The position numbers and the translations under genes were made by a program. The notes below the pieces were generated by a model that was not told where the DNA came from, did not search any database, and was given only the letters and a program-made list of their open reading frames with translations. Source: Nageia nagi (taxonomy: Eukaryota > Plantae > Pinophyta). Taken from it: a DNA stretch of 64,000 bases. How positions within the stretch are numbered: position 1 is the stretch's first letter; every line of letters begins with the position of its first letter. Positions 3,057 through 62,277 of this stretch are shown here, one piece after another. The stretch covers positions 190,836,001-190,900,000 of the forward strand of contig JBITNC010000001.1 of the NCBI GenBank assembly GCA_050084985.1, read 5' to 3'.

Positions 3057-3069
3057 AGCTCTGATACCA
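3057..3069 (-). promoter_or_regulatory. Primer binding site, initiator tRNA-Met
   Basis: + strand AGCTCTGATACCA = minus TGGTATCAGAGCT, adjacent to the LTR end. Confidence 0.92.
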
Positions 3070-3070
3070 C

Positions 3071-6332: not shown

Positions 6333-6785
6333 TAGCATCTACCATGGAGCAAAGGATCCAACTTTTTTCACTCATGCTTGCTTTTCTTTATGTTTTTGCA
6401 GATATATTTCTCATGAGTCTTCCACATACATGATCACTACTGCAACTAGGTGCTTAGTATGGACAAATATATCAGCATTTATGCATACAATCTTGTGTCT
6501 TCTAAACATTGTTGCACTAGAATATTTGCAGGCATTTTTGTGCTTAATGTGGTTTGCTAGAAGCAGAATAATTCTCAACAACATATCATAATTTTTGCAT
6601 GCAACGTTGAAACATAAGAAGGGAACGCCAACGTTTGATACAAGGTCTTCATTATGTGGGAGATTTATTGAAGTTGCATTCCACTTCAACGGACTACAGT
6701 TAACAAAGCAAAAGGATTCATGGAAGACAATATTTTGTGGCATTCTATAGTTGCTTGAGGGCAAGCAATACGAGAGGGGAGGCTT

Positions 6786-36300: not shown

Positions 36301-39300
36301 TGAGTCGTTGAGTAGGTGTTTTGACAAGAGCCTTGGAGGTACAAAGTCCTTTTCAAATTGGGGAATTGGTAACACATTCCGAACTATGTTGCTTGGGATC
36401 TCCTAAGTTCCGTGCATGATCTTCAGAGGGTCTACCGTGGGAAAGAAAAGCATCCCAACACCACCCAGGCTGGGTGTCCCTCCTATGATGCCAAGGAATA
36501 CCTGGAAAAGTCACAAAATTGACTCCCAAGGTGGGACATCACACTTCACTGAACTCCAAGTTCTGAAATTACTGAAAACTGTAGTTCCAATGTGAATCTT
36601 GATGCAAATCCACCACTTTCCTGTCATGTACAAGGGCACATCACCTTGATACAAGCCTTACTTCTCTTGGAAACCTAGGGCACAAATCCTAAAGTTCACA
36701 AGAGGTGAGTTAGGGTTTCAGCCCACACTCCAAACACAACAAAATAACATTACCTAACTCCAAAATGGGGTGCACAATTCTCTCTTATAGGAGATGTTCT
36801 AATTCCTTGTTGCGGGGGACCCACTTATTACAAGAACATAACTTTAAGTTATAAAGCACAAAAAGACTTCTAAAGACATAAAAAGTGGGAACTAAAGACT
36901 TCTAAACACATCACTCTTTATTTTTTAACATTACATTTTATTACTAAGTGGGAACTGTTGTGCCCTACACAACTTGCCCCAAAATTTCGCAATTTTGGAG
37001 ACCCTTTGCAACTTGCACCTGTGTGACACCAAGTTGGTACAATCTCTCCTTGTCCCCAACTGATAGGAAACCACATCTATCTTCCCATCACCTAAGTGAG
37101 TCCAATCGCCCAGTCTTGGTCATGTTATGATGAAAAGCTAAAACCCTAAAAAATTGGCTAAGTCTGGAAAATCTAAGTCAAGTTTAGGTGAAACTGGGAA
37201 ACTTGTGTCGAGTCGGAACCAAGCAAAGTGAGTTCGGGCCACTCCTTGGCCTAGCGTATGCTCTAGGAAGACAATTTGTTCTTTTTGGGATGTGTGCTCG
37301 GGCCAGGAGGATGCCCGATCTTAGGTCCAAGTGTTGAAGATGGAACTGGGTCACTTCCAGACCCGGTGCATGCCATGAAAAGACAAAATTTTGTCTTTTT
37401 GGGGCATGCGCCAAGCTTAGGGGGGATGCCAAGGATGGAATGAAGGCCTGAAAAAGTTGACTTAGAACATTTCAAGGTTGGCGCATGCCTCAAAAAGACA
37501 AAATTTTGTCTTTTGGGAGCATGCGTCTAAGCCATTAGGTCGCCAAAATGGACTTGAGACCCAAAAGAATGAAGTGCACTCACCCAAGAGGCTGGTGCAT
37601 GCCTCAAAAAGACAAAATGTTGTCTTTTGGGAGCATGCACCAAGCCTAGGAAGGCATCTGATTGAGTTGAAACATGGAAATTGGCTAAGGCATGGAGACT
37701 AGAAGCCTGGATCTTGCTCGAGCATGACCAGAGAGGCTAGCACATGCCTCAAAAAGACAAATTCTTGACTTTTGGGAGCATGCGCCAAGCTTGGGAAGAC
37801 ACCAAGATGGAATGAACTTGAAAATATGACTTAGTCCTGAGAGCAGAAGACCAAAATGAAGCAAATCTGGCCACCTGCAACCCAGCGCATGCCTAAGGAA
37901 GACAAAATCCTGACTTTCTGGACCATGCGCCTAGAATGGAAGAGACAAAGAGATTGGAGAGCGTTTCAAAAAGACAAGATCTTGTCTTTTGAAACCATGC
38001 GCTAGGCCTGGAGGGTCTTCTGGGCCAGATCGTTGGGCAAAATGAGCAAGCTGGGACACCAAGATGAGCAAAAATGGGCAAGTTCAGGTCACATCTAGCT
38101 CAGGAGAGAGTTGGGAGCACCGTTTCAAAAGACAAAATCTTGTCTTTCTGTAGCATGCTCCTAGCTCAAGAGAGAGTTGGAAGCACTATTTCAAAAGACA
38201 AAATCTTGTCTTTCTGTAGCATGCTCCAGGCTCAGAAGAGAATTTGGAGCATCGTTTCAAAAAACAAAATCTTGACTTTCTCTAACATGCTCCAAGTTCG
38301 AGGCATACACTCGAAATGGCCAGATTTCAAAGATAGTCCTAGGTCATCCCAATGATACATGCAGGCTACTAGATTGTCCTTGCAGGTGCCCAAAAGGTGA
38401 ACAAGTCAAGTCTAGTGTTGCAAAGGCCAAGGAGATGCATGAGCCTGAGTACCAGAAGAGCACAACGACGTGTTGTTGCAGTTGCAACAATTTTATTTTA
38501 TGTTATTTTATTTATTGCAATTTTATTATAAATTTGGATTCTGTTGGGGGCTTTTTCTTTCCTACCCCTGCAGGTTGGCAAGTAGTATCACAGGGCTTAG
38601 TGGAAAGACTCCAACACCTGAGTGGTAGGGCGTTACCCCTACCCTCTATGAGGACTGTTCACCTCAAAGGTTAGAAAGTGAAGGGTGCATGGGCTTACTC
38701 AGGTGGTTTGGTGGAGATGTTTTAAGCTATTACCAACTCAAATGAAATTTTTTACTCAAGGACTCGAAGGGTCTCTCTAATCCAATGAGGTTGTTTCTTG
38801 AAGAAAAATAAAAAATAAAAAATAAAAGGAGTTTGTTGCGAAAGCTACGCAAAAATGGAAAAATAAAGAAAAGGGGTTTGTGAAGAGACAGTGATATATG
38901 AATGGGGCTCTGGGGCAATGTTCTCACCGATTAGTGTGAATTTCAGAGACTTGATTCGCATGGGTTTGTTCTAGGTTCCACGCATTCCCGATCCGACTTG
39001 TGAGGCAACAACATGAATACCTCAACAAGGGGAGCTTGAAGCTGAAGTGGTGGAAAGGGAGGATAGGATGGGGTAAGACTCAATGATGGAATGAAGTTCC
39101 TAGGTTAAATGACATATGCAAGTTCTCTCGGAAGACACTAATCCAAAGTGCAAACTACAGAATGTTCCAACTACACACCACTTAGAATATTTTGTATGAT
39201 TAATGAGCACTCTTTTGTCCACCTTTTAGAAGATTTACAAAATGAACCAAACATTCAAGATAGCATAGAGAAGTAACATACAATGACATCCATAGTCTCA

Positions 39301-42300
39301 AATAACAACATGCTCACTTCAATTACATGATATTTATATCACAATTGCGAAAAAAGGAAACTTGCAAGTTTGGAAGCATAGTGTAAGTAGTCCAATTTTT
39401 CACAAAATGTCTAATCCCCTACAAATGACCCGAAATGGGCTATGTATAGTTTTAGAGCAACTCTAAATGTTGCCTTAACCCTAATTGCAACTTACGAAAA
39501 CATAAAATATGATCCAATCAAAATATGCCACATGGCGTTACAAGATATCTTCCAAGTTTGTGGAAGCAAATTCTCATCCATCACAAGCTTGGGAATTATT
39601 AACAAATAAATTCAAGTTTCCAATTATAACTATGAAATAAAATAAAATAAAATATAACAAGTATTGTGACTAGTCGCTTGGTGGGCCCGACGCCTCTACA
39701 TGCCCCTCAAAGTTGTCTAGGAATTTGGCTATGAGCTCCAATCTATGCAACATCTTTGATAACCTGGGCTTGTTCTCGGCCATGTAGCGTTCCACCTTGT
39801 CCGCTATCCTCAACATGTCCTTCTCCCATGCATGAGCTTTAAGCAAATGCTCCAAGTGATTGCCAATCTGGAATGTGTTGATATCTTCAGTCATAATCAA
39901 GTTGTGAAGGAAGTGCCTCATTTTTGCCACCACTAGGTCTCTGTCTCGGATGCCCGCATCATCATCAAGAAACTTTACTTGGAGCTCCATTTGCTCAAGG
40001 CAAGTGTTTGCTTTGTCATTGAGCTTTTGTACATCCTTTTGCACCTCTTGGAATCGAGTGGCTATTTGATTGACCACACCCAAATAGAACCAATATTCTT
40101 CGTAGAACTTCATGTCTTTCGACCTATGATTCTATGTATCTCAAACTGCATGATCATGTGCCGCCTAGAATCTAGGACTCTGAGAAAATTGGTTCTCTCC
40201 ACAATGATATCTTTGAGCTTTTGCTCCTCGAGTGCTACCCTTTCTAGTGTTCCAATAAATCGCTGAACTACTGCCAAGACCTCATCTATGTGCTTTTGTT
40301 TCACTGCAATCATACCCTCCTTAAGTGGCTTGATCTTCCGAAGTTCTTCGGTGGGTACCTTAGTCGACTCCAATTCTTTTGTCAACTTCTTCTGTGCGGC
40401 TAACTCCTTCTTGAGGCCCTTAATCTCGTTATTTTTCATCATACCATCTTTGGTGATGGCCTCTGCGTTGGAGACGATTGCATGTTTCCGACCAGCCAAA
40501 CCGATCAGACCTGTAGTAATGATCTGGTTAATTTGCTTGAGGTCTTTTGGGCATTGTGGGTTCTCTTTGTTGGCTATAATAGTCTTAATGTGTATAGCAT
40601 TATCGGCTAAGTGGACATACGTTTGGGATTTTCCTAGACGGGTGGAGCTTTCTCCTACTTGGTCATCCTTTTCCCCTACTCCAAATTCTTTTCCGACATC
40701 CATATTGAACACATCAAGGCACTCCTCCATGTTTGACACCCCACTCATCCATGGGTGATAGCTGATAAGTGTCCACAACGGCGTCTTGATTGGCAACAAT
40801 GTTCCTCTTTATTCTCTTTGAGGGTCTCCTCTTCTTGTTCATCATGCTGATCATCTGAAGCTCCTGTGGCTCGGGACTGCGGTGTCTTCTTCAATCAAGC
40901 CTTCCTCTGTACTGTCTCTGAAATTGGTTCTCTACTTCTCTTTGTAGACAGCCCTGATGTTGTATTCCGACGAGTCTCCTTTAAAATCTCTACAGACACC
41001 TCTTGTCGTTGCGCATCAGGGATCTCCTCATCTTGGACCATATTCCGCTCCTGTTCATCCTCCGATACTCCAATCTCTACTTCCTCTTGGTTTTCATCGG
41101 GCCTGTAAGAGGGACTAGAGGCTGCTGACCCAGATGGTGGTACAACAGGTGACGTCGTGGCTATGGTGGCTCTAGGTGGTCTAGGTGGTGGAGAAGGATC
41201 TTGATGTCTATTTCGCACACACCTTACTACCTTATTTGTGGCTACCCGCTCTAGTTCCCTTGCATCATGCTCATCCATGGTGGCTTGCACTTGCCGTACA
41301 ACTGGGTTCTTGCCGTGCATGGTTGCATACTGTCCAACAGGTATGTTGTTTATTGGAGAAGGCTGGGTGACCTGGGAAGTAGACTCTTGAATTCTTCTTC
41401 CTTTGTTCCACAAGAGTCTCTTGCTAATTGTGGCTTCCACACGGTGTTGCTCATCACTTGCATTCTTGTGTACCCTTTCTCTTATCCTCTTGATCTCTAC
41501 CTCATTGTTGATATTCCGGAAAGGTTCCTCATCTGCAAGTGGCTTATGTTCATAGGGTTTCTTCCTTTCCTTCATGAAGAATGAGTGCAACTTGTGGTCC
41601 AGATCATAGTGGTCGGTGGAAGGATATTCTTGAAGTTGAACCTAGCCAACTCTTCTTTCATAGCATCCATATCCGTCCAGAACTTACACTGGTATTCTCC
41701 CACAGCGATCGGCAGATTTGATGTAGTCGATTTCTTCTACCACACTTGTTCGTTTACAAAGGCCAATTGCCTCATCATCTCCATTAGCAGAATCTTGTTA
41801 TTCACGGACCTTGGCAATTGATAGGGCTGTATGGCTGATCCATGTATATGAACATAAGAGAAGTGTTGGTGATGGAGGAAGAAATTGCCATGTTTTTTGA
41901 AAGCATCTTGGACGGAATTGGAGATCCATGCAACTGTGATCTCTCCCTTAATTTCTTTATATATCTCATATTCCCATCCATCATTTTTCATTGTGAAACT
42001 GTCCCACCTTCTCTCTAACTTCCACTTGGGATAGCACTTCCAAATGGAGTAAGTTCCTCTTTCTATCCAAGCCGTCTCACCTTGCACTGTAACCTTGTAT
42101 CTGCCGTGGAGCAACATGTATACTAGGTATGAATTGAGGTAGAATTTAGGAGTTGTATCAATGGATGACAATTGATCGGCTATTGAGTCGCTCAACACCT
42201 TGCTCCATCTGATCCTTTTGCCTCTAGCAATTTCAAGAATGAACCCAAAAAACTCCTTGAATTTTGAAGTGTCTTCCTTCTCGAGAACTCTGGATAACAA

Positions 42301-45300
42301 GAGAATCATTAACTCGACTGTCGGGTAGAAGTTGGAGCGAGGAGCATTGATGAGTGCATTTCCCTTCAACCTGTGATGTTCTTCGAACATCCAACTCTTA
42401 ATAGCGATGGATGCCCTGGGAGTCTCTTGGTAGCATGCGAGTAACCTAGCTTCGCTATATTCATAGTCACCCTCGGAAGTCCATTGAAATGCTGCTTTAA
42501 TTGCTTTGGGGCAAAAGTCCATAATAATGTCTCCTTGATGTCTCGGAGGATTCTCTCTCCTTTTTGCCAGTGGTGACCAACTTCCATGCACAACTCAAGG
42601 AATGGGGCTGTGAACGGGATGAAGGCACAGGTGGAGAGCCCAGTGAAGAAGACAATGTCCTGCTTTAGGTCAGTGGAAGGAAGCCCACGAATGCTCTCCC
42701 TCATCTGCATGGGGTCATGTTTTGCCAGTCAGTATCTCCGATGGTTGCAAAATCGTTCCTCGAGAACCTGGCTCCTTGGGGAAGGGCTTGTTGTCTCTCA
42801 AGAATGGAGATGACACAATTCTGTTTCAACCGCTCGAGGTCCCTAGCAAAGTTAGGAGCCGAATTGCCGTTGGAGGGAGTTATGGTATTTTCAATTGCGA
42901 CATGGCTCATCAAGGATACTACGTGGGTTTCCAAGTGAGAATAACCCTCATGTGATGGTAGCTAACCTCCCAAATGCTTGCACAAGCCCTAAGATGCACT
43001 AATGAAGATGTTTAGATGCAAAAATCTGCAATTTCTTGCTATTTTGGCACAAGGGTAGAAGTGGAGCAAGTTTTGAATTTGGGAAAATGAGGTCCCAAAG
43101 CTTGTATTTATAGCCAATTTGTCTCCCACCTTGCCCTAGTCGTCTAGGGTTTCTATCAAACCTAATCATATCCCTCTATCTAGTCGACCTCGAGAAGTGT
43201 GTCAGTTCGAAAACTCATGCCAAGCCTCGTGTCCAGATGTTGGGTCCAAAAGGTCATCCAGGCTTGGCACATGAAAAAAAAGACATAAAGGTGACTTTTT
43301 AAACCATGCGCCAGCCGTAAAAGGGAGTATGCTCCCAATGTTGGGTCTCCTGGTCATGTGCTTGCTTTCTTTGATCTTCCAACTCACCCATTAACCTAAT
43401 TTCGCTCGATTTTTGGTCTTCCAGTTGGCTGAATTAATCAATTTTGATGCTTCGTTTCAAACTGGGCAACTTATAGGCTTGGCGCATGCTTTCAAAAGTC
43501 AAGATTGTGACTTTTTGAGGCATGCGCCAGGCTTGGCTGCCTCTCCAGCTTGGTCGCATGGTTCAAAAAACAAAATTTTGTTTTTTTTCAAACATGCGCC
43601 AGCCTCTTGTTGACCTAGTTTGCGAATTTTGATCTTCAAATGGTGATGCCTTAGCCGAATTTTCATGCTTCTCGAATCTTGGAGGCTTCTTGGGCTTGGC
43701 GCATGCCTCAAAAAGTCAAGAATTTGTTTTTTGAGGTCATGTGCCAGCCCCCCTGGATATGCTTGAGTTGGTTTTGAGTTCCCTGGGTCCATGCCTTGTC
43801 AAATTTTCACTTTCTGTCGAACTGAAAGCCCTTCCAAGCTTGGCGCAAGGTTCAAAAAAACAAGATTTTGTCTTTTTGAGGCATGTGCTAGCCTCTTGGG
43901 TGACTTAGATTGTTTTTTCGACATCCAAACTTGCTCAACTTGTCCTCCTGGCCAAATCCCATGGTTCAAAAAGACAAGATTTTGTCTTTTTGAAGCATGC
44001 GCCAGCCTCCTGGTGTCTTTGCCTTAGGATTATTGCGCCTTCTTCTGGTCGAGAATGCTTCCTGTATCTGGCGCATGCTCAGTAAAGTCAAAGTTTTGTC
44101 TCCTGGAGGCATACGTTGGGCTTGTAAGTGCCCAGACTTCATCCTCGAACCTTCCCTCTCACTTGGACGACCCCTTGGCCTAGTCGCATGGTTCAAAAAG
44201 ACAAGATTCTATCTTTTCGAAGCATGCGCCAGCCCTTGGGAATGCCTAGTTTGACTTGATCAGCTTCCAGCTCATCTTGGACTTCCTAATTCATCTAGAT
44301 TTGGCTTTTACTTTTCCTGGACTTAGCCATTTAAAGGAATTTGCAATTTCTATTTTATCATGGCTAACTCTAACTAAGGGAGAGGCTATGAACTATGAGT
44401 AGTCCATGAATCAGGGTCTTGATGACGCAACATGGGGAGTGAAGATGACGACAAAACGAAGTATATACAAAGATGTGCTTGATGGTCTCCAAAATCGTAG
44501 GATTTTGAGGCATGTTGTATTTTATTCACAACAGATTCCAAATACATCAAATTTTGTACAACCTTGTGACAAATGAGGATTTGCTTCCACAAGTGCTAGA
44601 ATGAATCTTGTAATGCCATGTGGCACTTTATTATTGGACCACATTTATTTTTCTTGGACCACGTAATTCGGGTTAGGGCAACACTGTGGTTGCTTCCAAA
44701 ACTATTTATACCCCATTTTGATTCATTTGTAAGGGGGGATTGACACTTTTAACAATTGAAAGGAACTTTTGTCTGCTAGACCAAAAATTCTAAGTTGTTA
44801 AATGTGGTGTGTTAGGGTAATTGTGATGATATGCTTCTCATGTTGTAATGCCGAATTTGAATGAATGATTGATAGTGTTGTCTAGTTTGTTCTATCACTG
44901 CTTTATGTTGATTTTAATCACCTGGTGCATCTTGTAAATCCTAGTTGGGGTGGACAAGAGAATGCTTGTAGATTTTATGAAGTGGTTGATTAGCATCTTT
45001 TTTGTGATATTTTGTCATTTGCAATCTTAGGCTTGGATACCTCAAGATGTCTTGTTGATTTCGCTCACAGTAATAACTTCAGCCGGATCGTTGAGTGTTA
45101 CCTTCACCCCATCCTATTCCATCCTTGCCATAGCTTCACGCTCCTTCCACTAGACCATTCGTGTTGTTGGCTAGTGGAACAGATGGAGGGTGCATGGAAC
45201 CTATGCCAAGACTTAGCAAGTCGACTCTTGAGGACCTTATCCCAAGCCCTTGAGTATGCATGTCTACAGTTATATCTCACTACCCACAGTCTTTCCACCA

Positions 45301-48300
45301 ATTTTCTTTATTTTATTTTACACTTTTTTTTCGCGAATTTCGCACCTCTATTTCCCTTTAGCACTTTTTAGAAACAGCTTTGCCTAGTTACAAAGACATT
45401 CCGAGTCCTTGAATCCACACATGATATTCATGCTGGTGGCAGCTTCAAACATCTCAGCCGTTCCCTGAGTTATCCTCACCAAGTCGTGAAGCTAACCTTT
45501 GGTGTAACCAGTCCCCATAGCGGGAGGGAGTAACATCCCTTCACCTGAGGTGTTGGCATTTTTCTCACTACTCCAGGGTAGGAAAGAAAAACACCCCAAC
45601 AGGAACTACATAAATAATAAAATAAAATGTTCAAGGTTGTCACGGATTGGGGGAGGAGTGCCCAGGGACGGTAGGGGACGACAACCTGATTTTAGGAAAT
45701 GCAAGGGGGACGACAAGTATATATATACTAGAAAAGTCCCCAAAATTTTCAAATTCAAGAAAAGTAGATATTAGATATAATTTCAATGTTTCATTCATCA
45801 TTAGCATTCATGATTCATCCATGGACCAATTTAAATATGTAACATACTTTGAAAATAAAAATCTGTAACTACTAACATCCTAACAAGTAACATGATTATA
45901 AAATGAAAATAAAAAATCTGAATCATAAGTGATAAATTAGAATAAGCTATAAATATAGTCTAATAATCATAGTCAATAATCATAATGCCATTAAGTTTGA
46001 ATATTCTAAAGCCCAAAAACATAGTCTTTGACATGAATATATCAAATAAGTCAAAAATTACAAATAAGTGTAAATGACAAAATAATTGCAATGTGAATAT
46101 AAAGACATGTTTTTAGGGTTGGAGGGGTGGAGACCCTTGTGGGACCCACCCCCTAAGGTTTATGATTTTTTTTGTAAAAAAGTTGAGATTTTTTTTTTTT
46201 TTTTTATTTTTAGTGTGCAAGAGAGGGGGGATGGCTAGCCGTCCCCTGGGACGCCCTTTGTCCCATAGCCATCCCCTAGCCCCTAGCCGTCCCCTTTTCA
46301 AAATTTTAAAAGGAAACGTCCCCAAGGCTTGGGAAACCGTCCTGGGGACGTCCCCTCCGTACGCCCTAAAAAGGGACAACGGGTAAACATCCCCTGAGGC
46401 GTCCCCTAGTCTCGGGGATGTGGGGGACGGCAAAACGGGAAAAAAAGCGGGGGGACACGTCCCCTGATAAAATTGAAAATATTAGAACACAAAATGGGGA
46501 CATTACACAAAGTGCACATTGTTACGGTTGTCTGTTGGCTTCAGTCCTCATAAGAAACAACTTAAATCACATTCCAACTGTTTGGGCATTCTGAGACTGG
46601 GAAGATGACAATAAATATGAACTCAGTTGAAGAAAGGATGATGACATCATTAATTACCACCTTATACATGATTCTCTTAATTTCATGGACTACCGAAAAT
46701 TTATTCCGGTATTTTCCCTAGTTTATTGATCTGGCATCAACTCAGAATGATGTGAAGGTTAATTGGGCCAGTTAGTGCTACATTTGCATATAAAATTCCT
46801 AAACAGCGTCTATATAAATTGGTCAATACCTCATACACATCATGACAGTTTCTCTTTATGAAAGTACATTGACTTTGGCTGATTGTATTCCTGATGTTAG
46901 TACTGCATTAATGAAAATCAGATTGTTGACCCCTTTTGACCTTTTGTTGACTATTTGGTGGAGTTTGAACTGCTCTATTTTGTTTGACTGCATGAAATGT
47001 GGGATCATGAGTGTTACACATAAGTTACTAACCTGACTTATACGAATGCTATAATTTAATGTATTGTGATAAATGGTATCGTACTATCAATGGATGTTCT
47101 TGTCCTATCAAGCAGGAGTGCCTTTAGATATTAATTTCTTTTATACAAGCTAATTATATATTTTTATGTTTCAGCCAACACTTCTACAGGTATGATATAT
47201 CATAGGAGGGCTGTCCTTTGGTATCAATTTCTGTCATAGCAGATATAACTTTATATATCTCAGAATCATAGTAGCTAATTGTATATCTTTGTTTGGTATG
47301 CATCTGGTACCGTGACTGTAGGAAATTAGCACTGCTTATGCTTCAATGGATGCATCATGGTATCACTATCTTAGCAAGATGAATGAGGATTCCTAATAGA
47401 TCTGAGCTACATGGGGCCTGCCACTGTGATCTTGGGTATTCATTGGGCATAATCTCTGAAGAAAGTCCTCATGAACTCCCTAGGCCCCACAGACTCATTG
47501 GTAAATTGAAATAGATGTGACGCCTTTGCTAAGGGTATCCCTTTGGTAGGTGTTTCTTTTTTCTAAAGGGGATGTTAATATCGTTGGCTAGAATTGATAA
47601 CAGAAAGATATGCATATTATTACTTGGTTTAGGAACTTATGAATGTTCACTTTGCAGATGACTTCAATTTAGTATTTGAACAATGTATAGTAGTTAAATT
47701 TGGTCTCGGCAATAACTTGACAAGCTGCTGGTTTAGGAAAAAACTTGTACTTGGAAAAAACTAGGATAAAACCCCAGGAATAAAAAATATTAAAACATAG
47801 TTTTACTTTTCAAATAACTTGGTAAACTTTTGACTTGCCAAAAGCTCAGTAATAGCTCAAGTCAACTAAAAAATTGGCAAAAACTTGGTTAAAACTTAAT
47901 CAAGCTTAATATACTTCAAAAGAATAGATGAATTTGGATCACAGGGGGAATGGTGGCAAATGATCTGAAGTATAATGTCAAATACAGAGAAAGCTTTAAT
48001 TTGTAATGCTTTGTTATATTTGGGTGCTTGGGAATATCACAGTTCACCAAAAATGCAATGTTGGGTAATTTGATTTAGTATACATATTTGGTGTGGATGA
48101 GGTTCGGAGGTTGAAGTTGTTGACACTTGAAGTAATCTACTAACCACAACAATCTATCCACTTGTATAAATACTTGTATTGACTCATGATATTAATCTCA
48201 TTGAGTAGTGCCAACAGATTGATCCAAGCTTGTAGGAACATGCACATAGGTGATTTGAAAATCAGGTGGCTCCACCCAATGACTTTAATAACTAAGCATT

Positions 48301-49339: not shown

Positions 49340-49392
49340 GTATCCTTCTCACTGGTTACTGTCCTTTTGTTAGAACATAATACTTTGTAATA

Positions 49393-49965
49393 TACATAGT
49401 CTAGAGCATAATATAAAAAAACTTAATTAAAAGGCAAATATTGCCTCTGTATGTGGGATGATCCATCTTAGTGTAAGTGCTGATGTTTTGCATCTTGTAA
49501 GTTTGTTAGTCTGATAATATAGGCTCATGAATATATTATTTGTAAAAGGAAAATCAGATGGTTTCTATTCTTTAATCTAACCAAAGCATCAGGTAAATTG
49601 TCTTACTGGTGGTTAAGCATTGCTGAAGAACTGCATTGCAAATATATTCCTTTGCAAGTTCTGGGTCCTTAAAACTCTTTTAAAATGCTTTACATAGTCT
49701 AGAGCATGATCCAAAAACGTAATTACAAGGCAGGATTGCCTCTGTTTGTGGGATTATCTATCTTAAAGTAATTGATGATGTTTTGCATCTTGTACGTTTG
49801 CTTATCTGATAAGACAGGCTTATGAATATGTTATTTGTAACAGGAAAAGTCTTATGGTTTCTGATCTTTAATTTAGACCAAGCCCAGGTAAATCATTCTA
49901 GTATTGCATATATAATTCTTGGTAACTTCAAGGCCTTTAAAGCTCTGTTAAAACTTTTACATTTT
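49393..49965 (+). repeat. Diverged direct tandem duplication of about 298 bp of intron sequence
   Basis: TACATAGTCTAGAGCAT at 49393 and 49691, with collinear downstream sequence. Confidence 0.85.
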
Positions 49966-50540
49966 TCCAGATGAGCTCTATTTCCCATTAACATATCTAT
50001 TATTAAATTTGTGATGCAACTGGATTTTCATGAGTGGCTGCTATGACCAATTTTGGAATGCACAGGTTTGGTAAAGAGGAAGGAACAAACATTTGTAAAA
50101 GTCTACTACATGAATGAAATTGTGCCTCAGTCCAGGTTCTTTAAAATGCCAACGTGTAAATTGTATGACACTGTAAAATTGTTGCAACACTATATTAAAT
50201 TATTAATATACTTGTTCCTCTCTGTATTAAATATTATCAGCTATCAGGTTTATGGGGTTTTTTCTGCTATGGATGTGCACAATGAAAAAAACAGAACACT
50301 GTTAACTCTTTTACCTTAGCAGCAGGCTGTCCTTCTAATTTCAAGTGTGTTTGTATAGCTTTAAATACACATGTACATACATCTTATACATCTCTAATTC
50401 AGAAACCTATTCCAATAGCATGTAAAGACCAAGTACAGTATGATTGGCACTAGATAAGCAATCTTGAATGCAATCTCAATTAAAAATATTTTCTCAGATG
50501 ATCCTCGAAGACCTGTATATTGTCAAACAAAGACCTGCAT

Positions 50541-50729
50541 TTTTTTGGTATTGGTCATGAGGGTTTTGAAAGGCTCCCCAAAGCTTGTACAATTGGAACT
50601 TTGTCACGCACATGTGACATTTGGAGCAAATCTCTGTCTGTAGGGTGTGGAATTTGAACATGAGACTCTATTTACAAGAGCTGGGAATTTCTACACCCAA
50701 GGTTCACCAAGTCCCCTAACAAGTGGAGA
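50541..50729 (-). mobile_element. tRNA-derived SINE
   Basis: TSD TCAAACAAAGACCTG(C/T)AT on both sides, A-tail on the minus strand, B-box-like TGTTCAAATTCC. Confidence 0.75.
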
Positions 50730-50769
50730 TCAAACAAAGACCTGTATATTGTCAAGAAGTTAGCAAATA

Positions 50770-51410
50770 AATATAGATCCTCCATTCTTGAAGATGCAGA
50801 TTTATTTATCCTCCATGGTCATTGGAAATGTTTCCTACATTGTCATTGTTATTATAACTTGAATATTCCCATATAGAGATATGTACCAACAATTGTATAG
50901 TTTATCCATTCTTGGTTGTGTATACTTAGTCCTCCTCTAGGGACGTTCTTTAGTTTTAGATAATCCATGTGAGATGTCATTCATAGAAATTCCGAGATAT
51001 TTAGATTTTCCATGTGCATAGGGAGATAGAATTGCTTATTAGATCTTTGTGTTGGATTGTAGATGCTGAGATTTGATAGATCCTCTTAACAAGAGAGATG
51101 TTGGTTGTAGTTCCTTCATTAGAGGTGATTCACTGTAAGATTGCATCTTCTTCTTTGGAATTGTGAGACAAAAGAATTGCTTGCTTTATCCATGTTGAGA
51201 GATGATATGAAAAGAATCCATCATTAGAGTTGTCTTGTGAAGTCCGGTAATTCTCTTTTTGTAGGGGGTTAATTTGTAGAATGCTTCCAAATGTAAGACA
51301 TTGAATTGTTTAGCCTTCAGAAGGAGTTGAAATCATGACATTCAGACGTGGTCCATTTTTATCTCAATTTTCGTTTAAGGGGGAGAATGTTGTGAATAAA
51401 TACTTTATGC
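50770..51410 (+). mobile_element. Ty1/copia-like 3' UTR fragment with PPT and LTR start
   Basis: TTAAGGGGGAGAA immediately followed by TGTTG at 51388. Related sequence at about 52745-53020. Confidence 0.45.
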
Positions 51411-51951
51411 TTCATTGTGTAAAGTAAGTCAGCATACACATACAAGACTAGAACAGAAATTGGAGGCATTTGATGATCAACCAGAATAGAAATTATTTAA
51501 TTAATAATTGAACAGATTTTCATACTCTCATGCTAAGTGGTTGAGTTTGGCACATTCTATCCAATAAATGTGAAAATTGCCAAATCTCTAAGTGTTGTGA
51601 ACAAATTCGGATATTTTATGCAAAAACTTTGTGGCTGCATATGAGCCCTAGATCTGAAGTCAAGGCTGACCAGATTCATAACAAAGCACAAAACATTCCA
51701 TCTATGGAGTGTGTTCTATTCATTCGCCCTCTTTTGTCTGTTGTTTGCCATGTATGGTCTCCAAAGTGTGTTCAAAACAGACCCAAACAGACCCCTTTGG
51801 CCTTTGCCCTTCGCTCCCAGCCTCTTGATGCCCTTCGCTGCTAGCAAGCAGCACGTAAAGAATGGATTGATCATGTTTTACCCTAATTTTTACATGTAAA
51901 TTTAATTGTAAACTAATCCTCTTATACATTCAAATTTATTTGTAATATTTT

Positions 51952-52065
51952 TTTTTGATACACGCACCCAACTCACGCACCCAATGCAGTGATTGGAACT
52001 CAGGACCAGGCGATGACCGTTGCAGCCATCCCAAGGCCCAACCGCAGGGTTGCCTCCATTGGAGC
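51952..52065 (-). mobile_element. Short tRNA-derived SINE (about 114 bp)
   Basis: Perfect 15-bp TSD TATTTGTAATATTTT (51937-51951, 52066-52080), A-tail, B-box-like GAGTTCCAATC. Confidence 0.85.
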
Positions 52066-54678
52066 TATTTGTAATATTTTGATTTTCATATTTTTTCATT
52101 ATATTTCATTTAATTTTAATCATTAATGTTTTTATCATATTTAATTTTCTTATTTTTCTAATAATTTTATTATACTTAATTTTAATATTTTAATTATATT
52201 TAATTTTAATTTTTATAATAATTTTATAATGCATTTTAATGTATTTATAAATTTGTTTAATACATTTATATAAAATATTATATTTAATTGTGTAGAAGCA
52301 AAACTAAATGATATTTTTATTTCTATTTTTTCAGAAAAGCAATGGCACCACCCAAATCATATATGTTACTAAATGATTTATTTTCTTTGTTACTGAATGA
52401 TTTACATAATGAATTATCATATATGTACATTTTTAACATATCAAATTTTATTCCGAATTTTTTAACATGTCGAATGAAATTCGAACTTTTAAGAATGCCA
52501 AACTTGGATACGAACTTGTACTGAACTACTTACCTGTCATGTTAGTACATATCAGACCTTATTAGTTTTGGTTTTATAGCATATTTAATTGGAACTCGTG
52601 TCTAATTATAACTGACAATTGATGTACTGCAGTGGATTTTAGTAACTGATATATTGATGCACTACAGCAAAGTCAGGTTAAAATTAGTTAGCTTCACTTT
52701 AAAATACGTATTCATGATGTAGTAGACTGATTGATTTTCATATTCTAGAGATGTATTACGGAATTGTATTGTTGGGATATCCTATACGTCATATATATTA
52801 CTAAATTACAGAATAGAAGTGTGCATGTCATGAGACTTAGTGGAATTTCATTTTTCATCATTGGAGATGTCCTAAAATATTCTTGTTTGTAGTTCTCCAT
52901 GTGAGATGTTGTATCCCTCATGAGAGATGGCTCATAAATGGATGAATTATTTATGGAAATACCATGACAGTATGCACATGTGTTCTTTGTTGATTGTTGC
53001 ATTCATCTCCATAGGTTATGATACAATTCAACTTTTTTAATATGTTAATTCCACTCTCATATCACAGTAGTAGCATGAATAATATAAATGAGCAAAAAAC
53101 AGTAGAACATTATGTGTATTTGCCAAATCCAAAAACTGAATAATAGATTTTTGAAATGAATGTCAATGAAGCAATCCAAGGGCTGTTGTCACTTCGAGGG
53201 GAAAATCTCCAAGTATTTGAAAATACTGATTAAGATACGAATTGACACTGATGATTATGGGCATAGTTGCTATTCCTATTTATAAGTAAATCTAGCTAAT
53301 GCATTGATAGCTATGCTCTAGAGCCAAATATCCATGTGATAAGGCTAGAGCTAATGAACTTCAAGATAGATGTGCAGTTATGTGGAATGTTTTTTAGAAC
53401 ATTTGCTTTCTAAGTTTAATCCTCTTCAACGAGGTCCTTCTGTTGGGATGTTTTTCTTTCCTGTGTAGGACACTCTGAATATCGCGCGCAGAACTTAGGA
53501 GATCCCAAGCAACATAGTTGGGAATGTGTTACCAATTCCCTGGTTGAAAAGGACTGTGTACCTCCAAGGCTCTTGTTGAAACACCCTGCTCAGCGACCCC
53601 AACGTTGTGATGTTGAAAGGTATGTCCGCCAGGTGTGTTTTCTAAATAAAGATAGATAAATAAAAATGCAGTATCCCTATTTGAAATCAGCCTCAATGGA
53701 ATGGAATGAGAGGTATGTAGTTTGTTAACCAACGATGTTTTATTTTTTGATGTATAGAGTTTGTTCGGAATTTTTGGGTGTGTACTTAACGATCATATTT
53801 GGGTATGAAAGCATAAAGACAATACTGTAAAAGGTGAAGGACAACACCTTGGAGAAAGAAAGGATACTTGGTCGGATATGGGTTTGAGGTTCATTGACAG
53901 GAAAGTGTCTAAAAGTTTATCTCTTTCGAATTGGTTAAGGACTCTTCATCCAATTCATCCAACCTTGCAAGCAAACACCTCAACGTTCGAATTGCTTCAA
54001 AGAGGGGCGGGGAGGAATGCCAATTGTCGGTTCTCTATGAGTAGGACCGATGCAATTGAATGGAAAACGGGAACTTCTGAAAGTGGGAGGATCATGGTTT
54101 TGGATGAAGGACCTAACAAGATGTCATAGAAGTAGAAACTGACAAAGAATACCCAATCAACTTGCATGTTAAGGATCACGCAATAAACATAGGTAAGCTT
54201 CAAGTACTTTTTAAAGTTTTTCAGAGATAGCTTCCCTAAAGCTCGAGAACTTTCAAAGGAATAAAATGAAAGTACACAAACCCACTATGAGTGCCCTCAA
54301 AGAATCAATTCATAACATCAATATGAAAAGTGTCAAACTCAAGTCTTTGTATTAATTTGAAAAAGAGTTGTGCAAGGATACATCAATTTGCTACTCTCTT
54401 ACAAAAGTTATCTCTTCAAGCTTGAAGTGCTTTGCTTCAGAATGAAGTCCTTACAAAAATGAGACCCTTGGTCTCTTATAGAGTTTGAAAATCCTAAAAG
54501 TGACTTTTGAAACCCTAGAAATGAGTTTGAAAACCCTAACCATAATTGCGAAATTAAAAGCTGATTACAAGCTAATTAAAAATGCTAAATAGAGATTACA
54601 ATTGGACTTAGTGGAAATCCACTAAGTTGGTTAAATATTTGGCTTACATACCAAAAACTTGCCAAAATAAACCCTTTT

Positions 54679-57600
54679 CTATTTTGGCGATTGTAGGAAG
54701 ATGACTTGCACGTTTGTAGCGATTTTAGCTTCAAAGTCATCTCCCATGAACGCTTCTACGTTCCTAATGGTGCGGTGGATTGTTTGGAGAGCTCCTTCGT
54801 TTGATAGCAGGTGCTCCATGATGGCCTTATTGTTTTTTACCATTTCCTTGCACCAATTGGCCAATTTCATCCCTCCTATCATCTGTTTTCAGGCTATGTG
54901 GATCCTTAGAACATATTTGCTCTGCGATAGTGGTGTGGATCATTGTCATCACTGTCACATACGCCTTGATGTCGCCATTCTCCTCAAACAAGGGTGCTTG
55001 GAATTCCTATTCCCTTGCCTATTCACTAATGACAGCTTTGAGTTGAGTTCTAGTGTATATGAAGTTGGTGGACTTGGCTTTGATGTAGAACAGATAATTG
55101 TACAGTTGGAACCAATCTATGCAAAAATCTAGCACGAAAGGATGATGGGTTGCTCTTCTCCGTAGGTCTAGCATTGTAGGGTACCCACTCTTCCACTTGA
55201 TGATCAATTGGTCTATTTTCTCCGCCTGAGAATGTGAACCCTCCTCCTCAATATAAAAATTTACTATGCTTGAGTGGAGTGCTTTGATGGCCTCAATAAG
55301 GTTCTTGGTCCATCCTTGCTTCAGGATGGTGATTCCAATATTTAAGTCAACTTGCTTTTTGTTGCTTTCAACTATCAAATTAGTAGCCTTGACTTCTTTG
55401 TCGATCATTTCCTGCCTCACCATTATCTTCTTCAGCTCCCAGATCTCTAACTTTAATAAGGTACCGGATTCCCTCAATGCCCGTGCATTTGTGATGATGC
55501 TATGCTCCATTCCCAATGTGCCAACAATCTCTACAGGGATCTCTTTTGTCTCGATGGTGATGGCAAACTTTCCGATACCAACCTTGTTTTTCCTTGAGTA
55601 GAGCTTGTCCTTGTAGGTGACTTTTCCTACAATGGTGATAAGAGTATCAATTTGCTGAAGTTCCTGATTTTCATCTTCAGAATCTTCTCCTTTGCAGTGG
55701 TGATTTGAACTCAACTTCATGCTCTACTTGTCTTCTTTTTCTCCTTTGTTCTTCATTTTCTCCCTCATCCTCTTGATTTCCACCATCTCTTCCTGAAGAT
55801 GATGCCATTGTCCTAGGTTTTGAAGTACCCTTCTGAGTTGATGTTGTCATAGTCCTCCGAGATGGTGGCATTTGTGACGCCTATTTCCAAGGAGTGGATT
55901 TTGAGGTGGTTGCTTCTGCTGCTTGTACAGTCACATCAATTGAGGGACTGACTACCTTTATCAAAAATCTCTACTGAATGGTCAGTGTCAACCCTGTCGA
56001 AGGCAATATCTTAATTTGTCTCTATATTGGTATCAATGATTGCACTAAAATCCATCTCTTCATCTGACTTTGACGAACTGCTCAGTCCATACTTGTCAGA
56101 ATTGGATGATGATGTGCTAGGATTTTGATTCAGGTGTATACCACTCCGATTCAAACCTTGTGGGAGATCTATCTTTTTTCTGCAAGTGTTTGAGAGATTA
56201 AACCTTCTCTTCTGAGATCTAGGATGGCATTCTTCGTACCCGTGATAGTTGTTTCAATGGTTTTTCCAAGGATGCTATTGGTAGCATACTGCCTATTTTG
56301 TCCTTGAGACAGGCTTATTGAAGGGGATATTATGGGAATAACATACCCATGGCTTGGGGTTACTGAGACCTATGCATTGGCTCTTAACCTGGCAGCTTCT
56401 TTGGCTTCGTGCTGTTTTTGTTTTTTTTTTAGCTCCTTGTGAATCCGTTGAACTTGCAAGGCATCCTGAATGTTCTTGTACCTCTCAATGCTACCAAGCG
56501 ACTAGTGTGGATATGATGAGCTCCATGTCTTCTGGAAAAATGCATCAATCACTCCATCGGGATCATAGTGATCCGCAGCTGCTTCAGTCGAGAATTCATA
56601 CAACACTAGCTCTTGTTTAATATTTTCAATCTGTCGCCAGGTGGTGCATTCATAATTCTTGATGACAATAGGCAATTGGTAAGTGGTTGCCGCCTTCTTT
56701 ACCCATACCTTGTTGTGTAAGTTTATCAAGTGTTTTGAAAATTCCATAAGGATTATACGATCACTTGCATAACGGGGTAGCCTGTAAGGGGCTTCTTTGG
56801 AGCCATAGACCCTAAGGTAGGTGAACTCTATGTCTTCCGCAAAGAAGTCCGCATGTCCCTTGATAGTGGCAGCAGTCTCTTTGGATATTCTGAATATGTT
56901 GGCTCTATCCATGATCTCTTCGTAAATTTTGCCTTCAAAACCATCGGTCATCATCGTCCAGTTTCCAATATTCCATTTGTTATGAGCATAGAACCGGGGG
57001 TAATTTTCCCACATTGGATGTGTAGGGTTGTACAAATACTGGGTATTGGCAATTGAAGTTACCCTCTCCCTACCATGAAGGAGTAGGAAAACTAGGTAGG
57101 AGTTCATATAGAATTTCTTGCTCTTTTGAATGTGTTTCAGTTGTTGAGCCAAGGAATCACTAATTACTCTTCTCCATCTAACACCTTTACCGCTACTGAT
57201 TAGCTCTATAAATTTCGCGAATTCCGGTCCGAATTTGCTGTCATCTTTCTGTCTAGTCACTCTGGAAAGCATGGATATTAGTCTGGAGACTACTGGATAG
57301 AACTCTGCTCTGTTTGGTGTTGCTAAGGCTCTCCTTGTGAGACGCTTGTGATCATCGATCAACCAATTTCTAATCAAATCAGTTGGAGGTTTCAGACCCT
57401 TGTGGAACTTCAAGTAGTCTTGCACATTGTATGATAAGCCTTCGCCCTTCCAAGCGAATGCCCTTTCTATTCCTTCCTCAGAGAAGTCCATGATTACCTC
57501 GTTTCTTCTATCAAGGAGTCTTCGCTTTCGGATGTTGCAATGCTTTCCTAGCTCGTAGCATAGTTCAGGGAAAGGGGTGGCAAATGGCACCATAGAAGCC

Positions 57601-57841
57601 GATAGTAGCAAGGAAGTTTTCAAGGTGTCCTTCACTAGTGAAGCTGGATCCAATGTATGTATTTTCATTAGAGTTTTAATTGGATCGAGGGAGTTGAATC
57701 TGTGTCTCCAATCTCGCTCAGTTGGTCAATGATTCTTGTGGTGGGCATCACGAGCTCTGACGTATGTTCAAGTGTGATGGGACTGTCCATTGTGAGCCTT
57801 CTCTGCTTCTTGTCTTTGATGTTCTGAGTGACTAACGCCAT
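54679..57841 (-). pseudogene. LTR-embedded gene of about 1,050 codons, homolog of 39670-42910, decayed
   Basis: MALVTQ start. Pieces 57668-57973, 56502-57668, 55677-55871, 55019-55720 and 54679-54882. Shared motifs IGDTD, PF..PF.ELC, IMDF, FYP.V, GK..RW..V.SDS, KFY.NSYLV..LLHGR, PY.LPR and H.I..NA. Confidence 0.85.
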
Positions 57842-59099
57842 TGTGTCCCTATCTAAAAGAACAACAAGAGTTAGAAGAGTCCTAGGGAGCTTATGGCACT
57901 TCCTAGGCAAGCAAAGAGGGGTTTTTGAAAAATTTGGATTTTTTTGGCGTTTTTTCACTCTGTGTGCCATCATTGAAAAGCGTTGTAATTTGCAATTTTC
58001 AAGGCCCTCTGGGTAAGTTTGAGATGGTACAAAGGTAACTAGCTCAAAGGGGAATGCCTTGGTAAAAAATTAGGATGATTGGAGAATTTTTACTTTTTTC
58101 TCAAAGAAAGTTGACTTTTTCAGCAAGAAAAAGTGGTGAAATTTGACAAAATTGGCAAATGGTGCTGGAATCAAGTTTCTGACAACTTAGATATGAGTGA
58201 GGAAGGTATTTCAGACTTTGAAACGGCCAAAAAGGACTTCAAAAACAATTTTAAGAGTTTTTGGAAATTTTTTTGGATTTTTTTTCAAGAAATGAGGATT
58301 TTGAGCACTCAGATCTTGGATCATATATATATTTTTTTTGTTTTTTTTTTAAAACAAAAGTTGATCACAAAGATAAAGGGTATCCAAAAAAGTTATCAAA
58401 CTTTAATTTTGAAAAAATAAATTTTCAAGTGTTTGAGGGTTTGAAAAATGGGTTTTTGTGTAAAAATCCTCAAAACTTGGAAAAAAATGGAGTTCATGTA
58501 AATGGAGGATGCTTGGATTTCGAATTTTAATGGAGTTTGGAGGAATGGCTAAGATGCTATGTGTTTGAAAAATCCTCAAAGGCTGAAAAATGTCTTTCTT
58601 TCTCACTTGGCTCTCAAATTCTCATGCTGCCCAAATGAAAGTGGTGAAAAATGGATGGGGTATGCATGTATTTATATACTTAGGAGGTCAAATAGTGCCA
58701 CATGTCAATACCAAATTAACCCTAAGTCAAAAGCTTGCATTTTGGATTCATTCTTTCCTTGCCAAACGTTGGAAAACATAGAAAACATGGAAAAATGCCA
58801 AAACCTGCACCTAAGTGTGGAAGGAGCAGTTTTGGTGCAATGTGGGGGGTCTTGGAAGCAAAGATGATGGTCTTTGGATGCTCTTCAACCTCCATGTTTC
58901 ACATTTGGATTTCGAATTTTGAGATTTTTGAGAAAAAATCCAAATTTTTTGAGTTTTCTCAGCCCTTGAATCCCATTTGGATGCAAAAAGATGGTTTTTC
59001 GGAGTTTGTGTTGACCAAATTGCACAAATGATAGGTCAAAATGGTGTTGAATCACACCACCTATGTCATGGAGGCAAAAAATTGCAATTTTGGGCACTT

Positions 59100-60500
59100 T
59101 TAGGGATCAAGAAGGCTAGGCGCAGGTTTTAGGAGTTTAGGCAAGTTTTGAAAAATGGAAAAAATGGGGAAGTCTTGCAAAACCAGCGCCAACCTTTAAG
59201 GGGGTCAAAAATTGGTTTTGAGCAAATTTGCAAGAGGCAAAGATGCTTACATTTGGATTTGCCACCCTACCTTTCTTTCCAATTATGATTTTGAGATTTT
59301 TTTGAAAATTTTGGAGCTCTCCCATTGGCTGATCCAAATTTTGTCATTTTGAGGGGTTAGATCCACTTTTTTCAAAAAACTTGAAACATGAAAAAGATGC
59401 AAAATTGGATTTCCTTTGCCTTAAGGATCAAATTTTTCAAATTTTGGGCAAAAAAGGGGGCTTGCATGCTAGGCGCTAGCTTTGAGGGTCTTGGCATGTT
59501 TTTGGAAAATTTAGAAAATGAGGGAAACATGCCAAAACTGGCGCCTAGCTTTTTGAGGAGGTAAATTTGTTTTTTTTGCAACATTGCAAGAGGCAATGTT
59601 GATCTCCTTGGAATTTTGCATCATATCTTTCTTTCCAATTTTGATTTGGAAAATTTTTAAAAAAATTTTCAAGCTCTCTCATTGGCTGATCTAAATTTTG
59701 CCATTTTGAGGGAGTAGATCCACTTTTTTCAAAAAACTTGAAACTTGAAAAAGATGCAAAATTGGATTTTCCATGCTTCTAGGATCAATTTTTTTGATTT
59801 TTGAGCAAAAAAGGAGGCTAAGCACTAGTTTTGAGAGTCTTGGCATGTTTTTTGGAATTTGGAAAATATGGGAAACATGCCAAAACTGCCGCCTAGGAAG
59901 AGGGGCAAAAATTGTTTTTTTTTTGCAAATTTTTAAGAGGCAATATTGGTCTTCTTCAAATTTGCTACCCTACCTCACTTTTATTATTTTATTTGGCCAA
60001 CTTTGAAAAATTTAGAAAAATTTTTGAGCTCTCTCATTGGCCAATCAAATTTTGATGATTTGAGGAGGTAGATCTCATTTTTTTGAAAAACTCAAATCAT
60101 CAATCTTAAGTGGAATCCCATCCTATACCCCTTGAAAGTCAAAATTTCCAATTTGTTTTCACTTTTGGGGCACACGTAGGGTAGGCGCAGGTTTTGAGGC
60201 ATTTGGGGTGTTTTGAAAAATGATGGAAAACACCCAAAACCAATGCCTAGCTCTAGGAGAGTCAAAATTTGCCCAATTTCAAAAATTCCAAGAGGAAAAG
60301 TGCTTAATTTTTGATTTGCCACCCTACGTCATCTTTAGATTTTGATTTTTGCAATTTTGAAACTTTCAAAATTTTGGAGCATTCCTATTGGCTGTCCTTT
60401 TACTCATTTTCCTGTTTTTTTTCACTTTTTCGTGGAGCAAAACTTGTCGAAATCGTGAACTTGAAAGACCACTTTGATGTAGAATCATGATCCCCACGAT
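59100..60500 (-). repeat. About four degenerate 355-bp A/T-tract-rich units, each with a CCAAT motif
   Basis: CATTGGCTG-type motifs at about 59323, 59680, 60035 and 60387. Three equivalents (CAGCCAAT) at about 33472, 33828 and 34192. Confidence 0.75.
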
Positions 60501-62277
60501 CGTGAGCTCAAAAATTGCCATTTTAGATCAATTTGGGTCTTCCAAAAGGTAGGCGTAGGTTTTGAAGAGAATAGGCCATTTTTCGAAATTAGACTAAGTG
60601 AGGGAAAACTTGCAAAACTCACCCCTAATTTTTCGAGGATCAAAACTCGAGTTTTTTTCGAAATTTCCAAAAGTAGAGTGGCCTTAATTCGTCATTTGAC
60701 ACCACACCTCTCTCTTGGATTTTCATTCCAAACACTTTGAAAAGACTCACTTTTCGGGCTCAACCTGAAGCTTTTCGGATGCCAAAACACCCATTTTTTG
60801 ATTTTATCCCTCAAGGGCGCTCAAACTTGCTTTCCTTGTTTATTTCGGGCTATATTGCACATTGCCGACCTTTCTCGTCTTTTACGGACCCAAACGGTGC
60901 ATTTTTGGCCATTTTTGGGCTCTAAGTATGCTTTTCGACCATTTTCGTCATTTCCGAGCTCGAACAGTGAAAAAATGAGCATTTTTGGTATTTTCAGTGT
61001 TTCGAGCTCAAAGTCTACATTTCAGGCCTTTCCGAACTCAAGATATGTAAAAACGACCTTTTCGAGCAATTTCAGGCATTTCCGAGCACTTTGAGGCCAA
61101 ACTTGCATTTTTGGTCATTTTCGAGCTTTTCAGGCCCAAATTGTGCAAAAACATGGTCTTTGGCTATAGATACCTTTTTCGGGTTCAATTTGTACAAAAA
61201 TGTGCATTTTTGTCATCTTAACTGTATCCATAACTCTCGGGCTCAAATTCGATGAAAAACACACCTTTGGTCGTATTCGCACCTTTGTTGCTCAAACTTT
61301 GCCAAAACACCACCTTTTCTGCCCTGGTGGCCATTCGCTCAAAACTCCTCTATTTGGTTGTTGGCGTGATCCACAACTCCATCTTGTGAGGTGTCGCTTG
61401 AAATCAGGCCCTAAATTGGCCACTGGCTAAGTTGAACTCTCTTCATGATTCCCGGGCATGCTTGTGCATTGTTTGATCATTTGGCCGTTTTGGGTCTCCA
61501 TACTTGGCCATAAGTTGATCATGCCCAGACAATGTTGCTGATTGCCGTTTGCAAAAAATGGGTCCCTAAAATGCTGCATCTTGGGGTGTGTTGTGCGGGC
61601 ACAACACCTTCCGTTTGAAAAGTAATTTGCTGACTTCTTGATTCCTTATCTTTCTTGAGCTTTTGTTCAAAATGAATTCTGGTTGTAATGTAATCTTCCC
61701 TTCTTCATCAAGTTTTGGCATCTTTGTTTGTGTTTGAATGTTTTCACCTATTACTTGTTTCAAACAAAAAACATTAAGTAAAGGATGAATTTTGAATATG
61801 TTGGTAGTTCATGTATTAGGTCACTTTTCAAATTCTGTTACATACTTTATATGGTCCATAGAACATTCATGCCAACTTTTGTTTGGCTTTTGTTTTCAAA
61901 GATGCATGTTTGTTGATTGAAGTTGATGAAATACCATACTACCTTCCTTGAAGCTTCTTTTTATTTTGTATTGGTCCACTTGTTATTTAATGTGGTTTTG
62001 AGCTTTTTTGAATATTGTACATGAGGAGGAAGAGAACCTTTTGTTGATATTGTAGCATATTGCCCACTTTTTGGAATGTAGGAGGCTTTTCCCATAAATT
62101 GGCTTGTAGCGGAACATCTTCGTTGTAAACTAGTATGATGTGTTGCTCCACCATTTTGCTAAGGAAAACCATTTGACCATTGTACTTGTTTATTGGATGC
62201 AAAACATTTGAAGTATGTTTCAAAACATTTGTTGACAATTTTTGTTTAGCCATCCAATTGTGAATGGTAAGCAAACC

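Follow-up and report, generated by a model that had tools for sequence, protein, structure and literature searches.

Solo-LTR-like units in Nageia nagi with remnants of an accessory gene of predicted VANC/PMD-type fold

Two large units in the genome of Nageia nagi end in the way that long terminal repeats (LTRs) of retrotransposons end, and each of them holds the remains of a long gene. What kind of element are these units, and what might a gene be doing within an LTR? Both lie in a stretch of 64,000 nucleotides (contig JBITNC010000001.1, positions 190,836,001 to 190,900,000 of the forward strand), which we call the window and to which all coordinates refer. The reading that we propose, with a probability of about 0.5 for the whole of it, is that the units are solo LTRs of a Tat-type lineage, carrying a sense gene that was once under selection and that is predicted to encode a DNA-binding regulator with a VANC/PMD-type fold. 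By way of the repeat arrays in that LTR family, the regulator would keep the family transcribed in the face of silencing by the host.

The units, their relatives and the host lineage

The units discussed here are the following (TSD, target site duplication).

38542..44533, minus strand: unit A, gene-bearing and solo-LTR-like, 5,992 bp, TSD GATTC, lying within unit E
53441..61606, minus strand: unit B, gene-bearing and solo-LTR-like, 8,166 bp, TSD CCTTC
36956..45601, plus strand: unit E, a relative of A that has no gene, 2,649 bp once A is left out, TSD GGAAC, with 62-64% identity to A at either end
32405..36460, plus strand: unit C, a relative of B that has no gene, with 72-73% identity to B, 5' tip lost, probable TSD CCACC
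17827..22287, plus strand: unit D, gene-less relative of the C/B type, without a TSD match, probably with an insert of ~1 kb
32050..45644: host LTR that continues from the flanks of C, TSD GATTG

The boundaries, lengths, TSDs and termini of A and B proved on re-check to be exactly those of the initial annotation, and a sequence check of the minus strand gave TGTTGTG...CCCAACA for both. At the nucleotide level A and B share almost nothing except the N-terminal domain of the gene and the last ~200 bp. A 5-bp TSD is not significant by itself, since generic TG..CA pairs with such a duplication were observed 23 times among 12,098, with ~18 expected by chance. With the termini specific to this family, a TSD is found in all three complete units (A, B and E), which have exactly the TG...CA ends, short inverted repeat and 5-bp TSD by which a solo LTR is recognized; it is probable in the truncated C and absent in D.

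The two gene-bearing units had been described as lacking an internal LTR pair, a primer binding site (PBS), gag-pol and a transposase, and this was borne out. Self-comparison found no internal LTR pair in A or B, no PBS-type motif adjoins either end of either unit, the gag-pol of a related locus used as a query has no match within the 64-kb window, and no transposase match was found in A or B. The window also has no tRNA or Rfam matches. Elsewhere in it, the CCACC that flanks both ends suggested that the stretch from D to C (17827-36460) might be a single element with two LTRs. We rejected this, because the flanks of C continue the host LTR, D is not followed by a PBS and a gag-pol match between the two is absent.

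Does an LTR lineage with these ends exist? A scan of metagenome contigs for the terminal pattern returned 26 loci, of which 9 were kept as family members and 17, having no similarity to A or B, were dropped. In one of the nine, L014, the family terminus is followed by 6 nt, then by a 17-nt motif starting with TGG, TGGCGCTAGAAGGAGGG, a PBS that may be of the tRNA-Asn type, and then by the start of a reverse transcriptase (RT). A literature search for this PBS type turned up no listing. The RT piece is 36% identical (E 2e-50) to the Gypsy RT of an aRH-bearing element, and upstream of it a tail of ~13 residues looks aRH-like by eye, without a Pfam match. L014 thus supports the reading of the units as an LTR lineage in the orientation first given, and its PBS excludes the opposite orientation. 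The LTR of L014 represents a third subfamily (F) and is gene-less, so that the PBS link holds for the lineage and not for a gene-bearing copy.

No PBS follows the terminus in the other eight contig loci or at any of the five window termini, and the family contigs, which are 1.5-8.5 kb long, contain no parent element with two gene-bearing LTRs. Such a pattern, together with the resemblance of the protein to a DNA-transposon factor (see below), would also suit complete, non-autonomous DNA-transposon-like elements, VANDAL-like for example, that carry an accessory gene and are not LTRs. This is highly improbable, since in L014 a PBS and an RT follow the family terminus, the ends are TG..CA with 5-bp TSDs, and neither A nor B has a transposase match. 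We conclude that A and B are likely to be solo LTRs of a plant retrotransposon lineage, and that the gene very probably lies inside a true LTR.

Tentatively, the host element can be placed as a Tat-type Ty3/Gypsy element of the TatII group. An aRH before the RT is given as a mark of TatI and TatII, and TatII as the gymnosperm group, in the available portion of the REXdb paper (PMC6317226). According to its supplement, the 27 TatII elements have PBSs of the Asp/Asn types, a 5-bp TSD in half of the cases, lengths of up to 18 kb and extra open reading frames (ORFs) in the sense orientation both 5' (23%) and 3' (26%) of pol. In these respects, and in the possible aRH tail of L014, they would resemble our family. 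Unlike the gene described here, the TatII extra ORFs are not placed in the LTR and have no domain named in that portion of the source; nevertheless, the 5' and 3' counts of sense ORFs would fit one gene counted once per LTR.

The gene, its history and its predicted fold

39670..42910, minus strand: remnant of the accessory gene of A, 1,080 codons, from ATG at 42910 to TAG at 39670, broken
54679..57841, minus strand: remnant of the accessory gene of B, 1,054 codons, from ATG at 57841 to TAG at 54679, broken
56505..57725, minus strand: longest open piece of the B gene, 407 aa, with a predicted fold that matches VANC21 (PDB 9LNK)

The initial annotation assigned to each unit one whole sense gene of about 1,050 codons. 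The orientation and the size stand, but neither gene is whole: each reading frame is interrupted so often that about eight or more open pieces are left. The idea that every solo LTR keeps one complete gene does not hold here, since A and B each have a damaged copy and the gene is missing from many relatives. The A gene encodes a VANC/PMD-like N-domain, a low-complexity linker and a heptad-rich C-part. The A and B proteins are collinear, with 37% identity in the N-domain (335 aa, E 1e-65) and 25% in the C-part (128 aa, E 3e-8).

Six copies have the gene at the same position, namely A and B of the window and the loci L002, L007, L022 and L023; it is B-like in L002, L022 and L023 and A-like in L007. 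Such a fixed position speaks against the gene block being a separate nested insertion, a possibility considered at the outset. L017 retains both gene ends around a deleted interior, hence at least that gene-less form is a product of loss. Contigs from all four of the runs span all 30 bins of A, and the depth of the gene is of the same order as that of the tail, which is a weak hint and not a copy number.

Judged by its substitution pattern, the gene is one that was formerly under purifying selection. Pairwise dN/dS is 0.06-0.38 in nine of 11 comparisons, the remaining two being saturated, and differences at third positions exceed those at second positions two- to four-fold in the three of four gene pieces that yielded counts. 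In the codon-phase control the tail of A is flat and the tail of B has no third-phase excess. Past selection had been proposed from motif conservation, and dN/dS values that are not near 1 agree with that proposal.

Protein relatives number 136 at E 0.001 or better, and an alignment search gave 29, none with a more informative name than 'hypothetical protein'. One relative is an intact protein of 1,010 aa with the same layout as the A/B gene. None of 4,196 candidates was a longer protein containing the 407-aa piece, which is weak evidence. Protein-to-locus scans yielded 81 stretches in metagenomes and, with query P0139, two in viral contigs; in neither set was any confirmed. Two candidates from viral contigs, L027 and L028, were discarded as unrelated, L028 being a phage.

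What could such a protein be? In predicted structure the best match of the N-domain is VANC21, and the domain shares the fold of VANC, DUF1985 and PMD proteins, at a sequence identity to VANC of 7-8%. Searches by sequence were silent on this point: Pfam DUF1985, DUF287 and PMD gave no match among the families listed for 106 members and in 19 and 4 further scans, and the PDB gave none. Foldseek against PDB and BFVD returned nothing at E 0.001 or better. The initial annotation saw a loose resemblance to the 'putative plant transposon protein' domain; the 106 aligned members have no such Pfam match, and the fold points to VANC/DUF1985/PMD. That the gene product has the VANC/PMD fold is, on the strength of the structural model, quite probable.

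A very different reading of the same domain would make it a tyrosine recombinase that moves the unit itself, as hinted by one Atlas cluster (score 0.96) in which 17% of the members have Phage_integrase. The overlap in the Atlas row is limited to 143 of 256 features, however, no Pfam integrase match was found among the 106 aligned members, the best structural match is VANC21 and no tyrosine recombinase occurs among the structural matches listed. TSDs and TG..CA ends, moreover, are what a retrotransposon-type integrase would leave. We regard a recombinase as extremely improbable.

The predicted VANC/PMD-type protein would not be a VANC proper. VANCs are encoded by VANDAL Mu-like DNA transposons, that is by Mutator elements (PMC5735166, in the part available), whereas the gene described here lies in units with LTR-type termini, a PBS-linked relative and no transposase; it has no sequence match to VANC, with no DUF1985 or DUF287 in Pfam, and is likened to it by predicted fold. 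It may nonetheless work like VANC.

Promoter motifs, repeat arrays and the place of the gene in the LTR

43270..44240, minus strand: upstream array of A, imperfect palindromes of ~48 bp at a spacing of about 72-216 bp, candidate binding sites
58990..60730, minus strand: upstream array of B, units of ~350-380 bp without palindromes, their sequence not related to that of the A array
43105..43112, minus strand: TATA-1 of A, TATAAATA, followed ~15 nt on by CTCATTTT, candidate promoter upstream of the gene
58669..58678, minus strand: TATA-1 of B, TATATAAATA, upstream of the gene
39441..39449, minus strand: TATA-2-like motif of A, ~900 bp from the 3' end, read as CTATWTATA in relatives
54473..54481, minus strand: TATA-2 of B, decayed; L002, C and D have TATAAATA at the equivalent place
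38542..39660, minus strand: 3' part of A, non-coding, ~1.1 kb, conserved in gene-less relatives, candidate R-U5
53739..53744, minus strand: AATAAA, candidate poly(A) signal ~305 bp from the 3' end, common to B, C, L002, L017 and L022

The units are thus laid out as a terminal hairpin, a subfamily-specific repeat array, TATA-1, the gene, TATA-2 and a conserved tail of ~1 kb, with TATA-like motifs on both sides of each gene. The initial annotation was right about a motif that lies ~200-220 bp past the stop in A and B and 0.9-1.0 kb from the 3' end, but it overlooked the cleaner TATAAATA upstream of the genes (43112; 58678). Neither the repeat arrays upstream of TATA-1 nor the nesting of A in E appeared in it. 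Each of C, D and E still has the tail of ~1 kb as well as a repeat region upstream. Palindromes of ~48 bp occur 11 times in the upstream regions of A, E and F, and not at all in B and C or in 23.4 kb of controls.

Which of the two TATA motifs would start the genomic RNA? If it is TATA-2, the gene lies in U3 and would be copied into both LTRs. TATA-1 would then drive an accessory mRNA with its 3' end at the poly(A) site of the LTR itself, and everything needed to transcribe the gene would be present in any solo LTR that has kept it intact. A retroviral gene encoded in U3 and duplicated with the LTR has a precedent in MMTV sag, although sag is a small superantigen of an animal retrovirus and homology is not implied.

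If TATA-1 starts the genomic RNA, the gene is still in the LTR but past the main start, and it would be the first cistron in R/U5, like the Ogre-type sense PMD-coiled-coil ORF before gag. This would agree with the clean TATAAATA of TATA-1 that in A, B and L017 stands right after the array, with a spacing between TATA-1 and CTCATTTT that equals that of TATA-2 in C, and with the sense 5' PMD-coiled-coil extra ORFs known in Tat lineage IV from the available part of PMC4408406. It agrees less well with a TATA-2-like motif and a 1-kb tail that have been kept in the gene-less C, D, E and F; and with AATAAA as close as ~305 bp to the 3' end, R would be ~5 kb long and a very long minus-strand strong-stop DNA would be needed. 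We regard an R/U5 position as rather unlikely and lean towards U3.

A possible regulator and what it would mean

With the gene placed in U3, several suggestions can be made about its product. The N-domain may bind the array and activate or unsilence the family in trans. The palindromes in A, E and F hint at a dimer, which may be joined via the coiled-coil C-part, and gene-less LTRs that retain the array would be passengers. VANCs are described as binding motifs that have been multiplied within tandem repeats, and these vary from one related element or family to the next; VANCs are reported to be dicot-specific, and a fold of the VANC/DUF1985/PMD type is also present in MAIN, which has a role in silencing (PMC13547354, PMC5735166, PMC5418596, PMC12859917, PMC13477047, bioRxiv 2026.08.24.746577, each in the portion available). 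That the product binds its own repeats as a positive regulator is a tentative proposal from the modelled fold, to which we give somewhat less than even odds.

Some observations point the other way. The CpG o/e of the arrays, a proxy for methylation and its loss, equals the background and gives no sign of protection; the fold is also used in silencing; Tat elements often have tandem arrays in any case, according to the literature; and TATA-1 is possibly the main promoter. Perhaps, then, the location and the fold are as proposed but the protein does something other than activate its own LTR: it may repress the element, in the way that MAIN/MAIL1 silence transposons, or serve integration targeting or nuclear import. 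The first three of these observations would favour such a role, as does the fact that the functions of Tat extra ORFs are called unknown in the literature, so far as it was available. Against it, the arrays are subfamily-specific and adjoin the gene, just as VANC targets vary by family, and they persist in gene-less copies. We consider such a role possible but doubtful.

How does the proposed positive regulator compare with known accessory genes? Extra ORFs with PMD and coiled coil are known in TatIII and Ogre elements, in the internal region, either antisense at the 3' side or sense at the 5' side (Ustyantsev 2015, PMC4408406; REXdb, PMC6317226; both as far as available). The A/B gene resembles them in its likely Tat-type host, its long accessory ORF, its predicted PMD/VANC-type fold, its coiled-coil-like C-part and the nearby tandem arrays. 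It differs in that theirs are internal and match Pfam PMD, while the A/B gene is sense, lies between LTR termini and has no Pfam match. The accessory genes of Retand and Grande elements (PMC7264820, PMC11963269, in the parts available) would be similar in having a promoter of their own, a predicted nuclear or DNA-binding role, coiled coils of the SMC type and family-specific arrays; they are unlike it in being antisense and internal, between pol and the 3' LTR, in the length of the LTRs of their elements (0.3-1.2 kb), in their TRP28 domain and in being lost from solo LTRs.

A literature search, which covered few subscription papers, found no description of a gene inside a plant LTR or of a VANC-like retrotransposon protein. 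What is new is likely to be the LTR-borne placement of an accessory gene; PMD and coiled-coil extra ORFs in Tat elements are already known. For lineage II, the part of PMC4408406 available reports no extra ORF, in a survey that limited LTRs to 2 kb. LTRs of 6-8 kb exceed limits of this kind, so that an abundant lineage may be under-annotated.

The most far-reaching version of our suggestion, which we hold to be distinctly unlikely as a whole, is that a gymnosperm Tat lineage has a complete VANC-like anti-silencing system in U3, consisting of a protein, its promoter, a poly(A) site and co-evolving target repeats. Solo LTRs, which are normally dead ends, would stay productive and act in trans to unsilence their family; and the VANC/MAIN fold, far from being a dicot invention, would be one long used by retrotransposons for their regulation. 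At a more modest level, the units suggest a function, open to testing, for the extra ORFs of Tat elements, a role that the literature available calls unknown, and connect these ORFs by predicted fold to the best-studied transposon anti-silencing factor, with candidate target repeats adjoining the gene. Since the gene is within the LTR, such a regulator would survive LTR-LTR recombination, the main route by which plants remove these elements.

Nested insertion of one lineage

The gene-less units C and E are inserted in a solo LTR of another family, about 0.9 kb long (window 32050-45644, TSD GATTG), and the gene-bearing unit A lies in turn inside E. With C, E and A, this host LTR is a case of nesting three levels deep by a single lineage.

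Termini of the family

The 5' end of the A/B family carries a small hairpin of the type TGTTGTG-N3-9-ACAACA, which is present in the gene-bearing units A and B and in their gene-less relatives E and D:

44512-44533, unit A (-), 5'-end hairpin
61589-61606, unit B (-), 5'-end hairpin
36956-36972, unit E (+), 5'-end hairpin
17827-17844, unit D (+), 5'-end hairpin

About 220 bp before D there is a 183-bp unit (17426-17608) that consists of two 5' ends of this family, face to face; no TSD match was found at it.

Other features of the window

Remnants of a hAT transposase occupy 26761-29396 (Dimer_Tnp_hAT, E 5e-9; DUF659 and zf-BED weak), and a 72% copy of this region lies at 62620-63973. An open frame of 414 codons (1206-2450, -), for which there was no Pfam match, has a Met-type PBS motif nearby at 3069 (-); with them goes a 72% inverted repeat (3068-3769 / 7195-7935). 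The window also contains an array of ~30-bp repeats (5884-6350) that has no relation to the A/B gene-bearing units.

Related loci and proteins

At two metagenome loci (L002:5002 and L012:1585) the B-type gene is interrupted at an identical point by a gene-less unit of the third subfamily, F, about 1.8 kb long, with TSD GGATC. At a third locus, a second Gypsy element (L014:1-5207; gag, RT, RH, aRH, INT in that order) is inserted into the RT of the PBS-bearing copy. Intact relatives of the accessory gene product are P0073 (1,010 aa) and P0162 (1,018 aa), with identity of about 21% over the N-terminal 440 aa; both share its layout of domain, linker and coiled coil.
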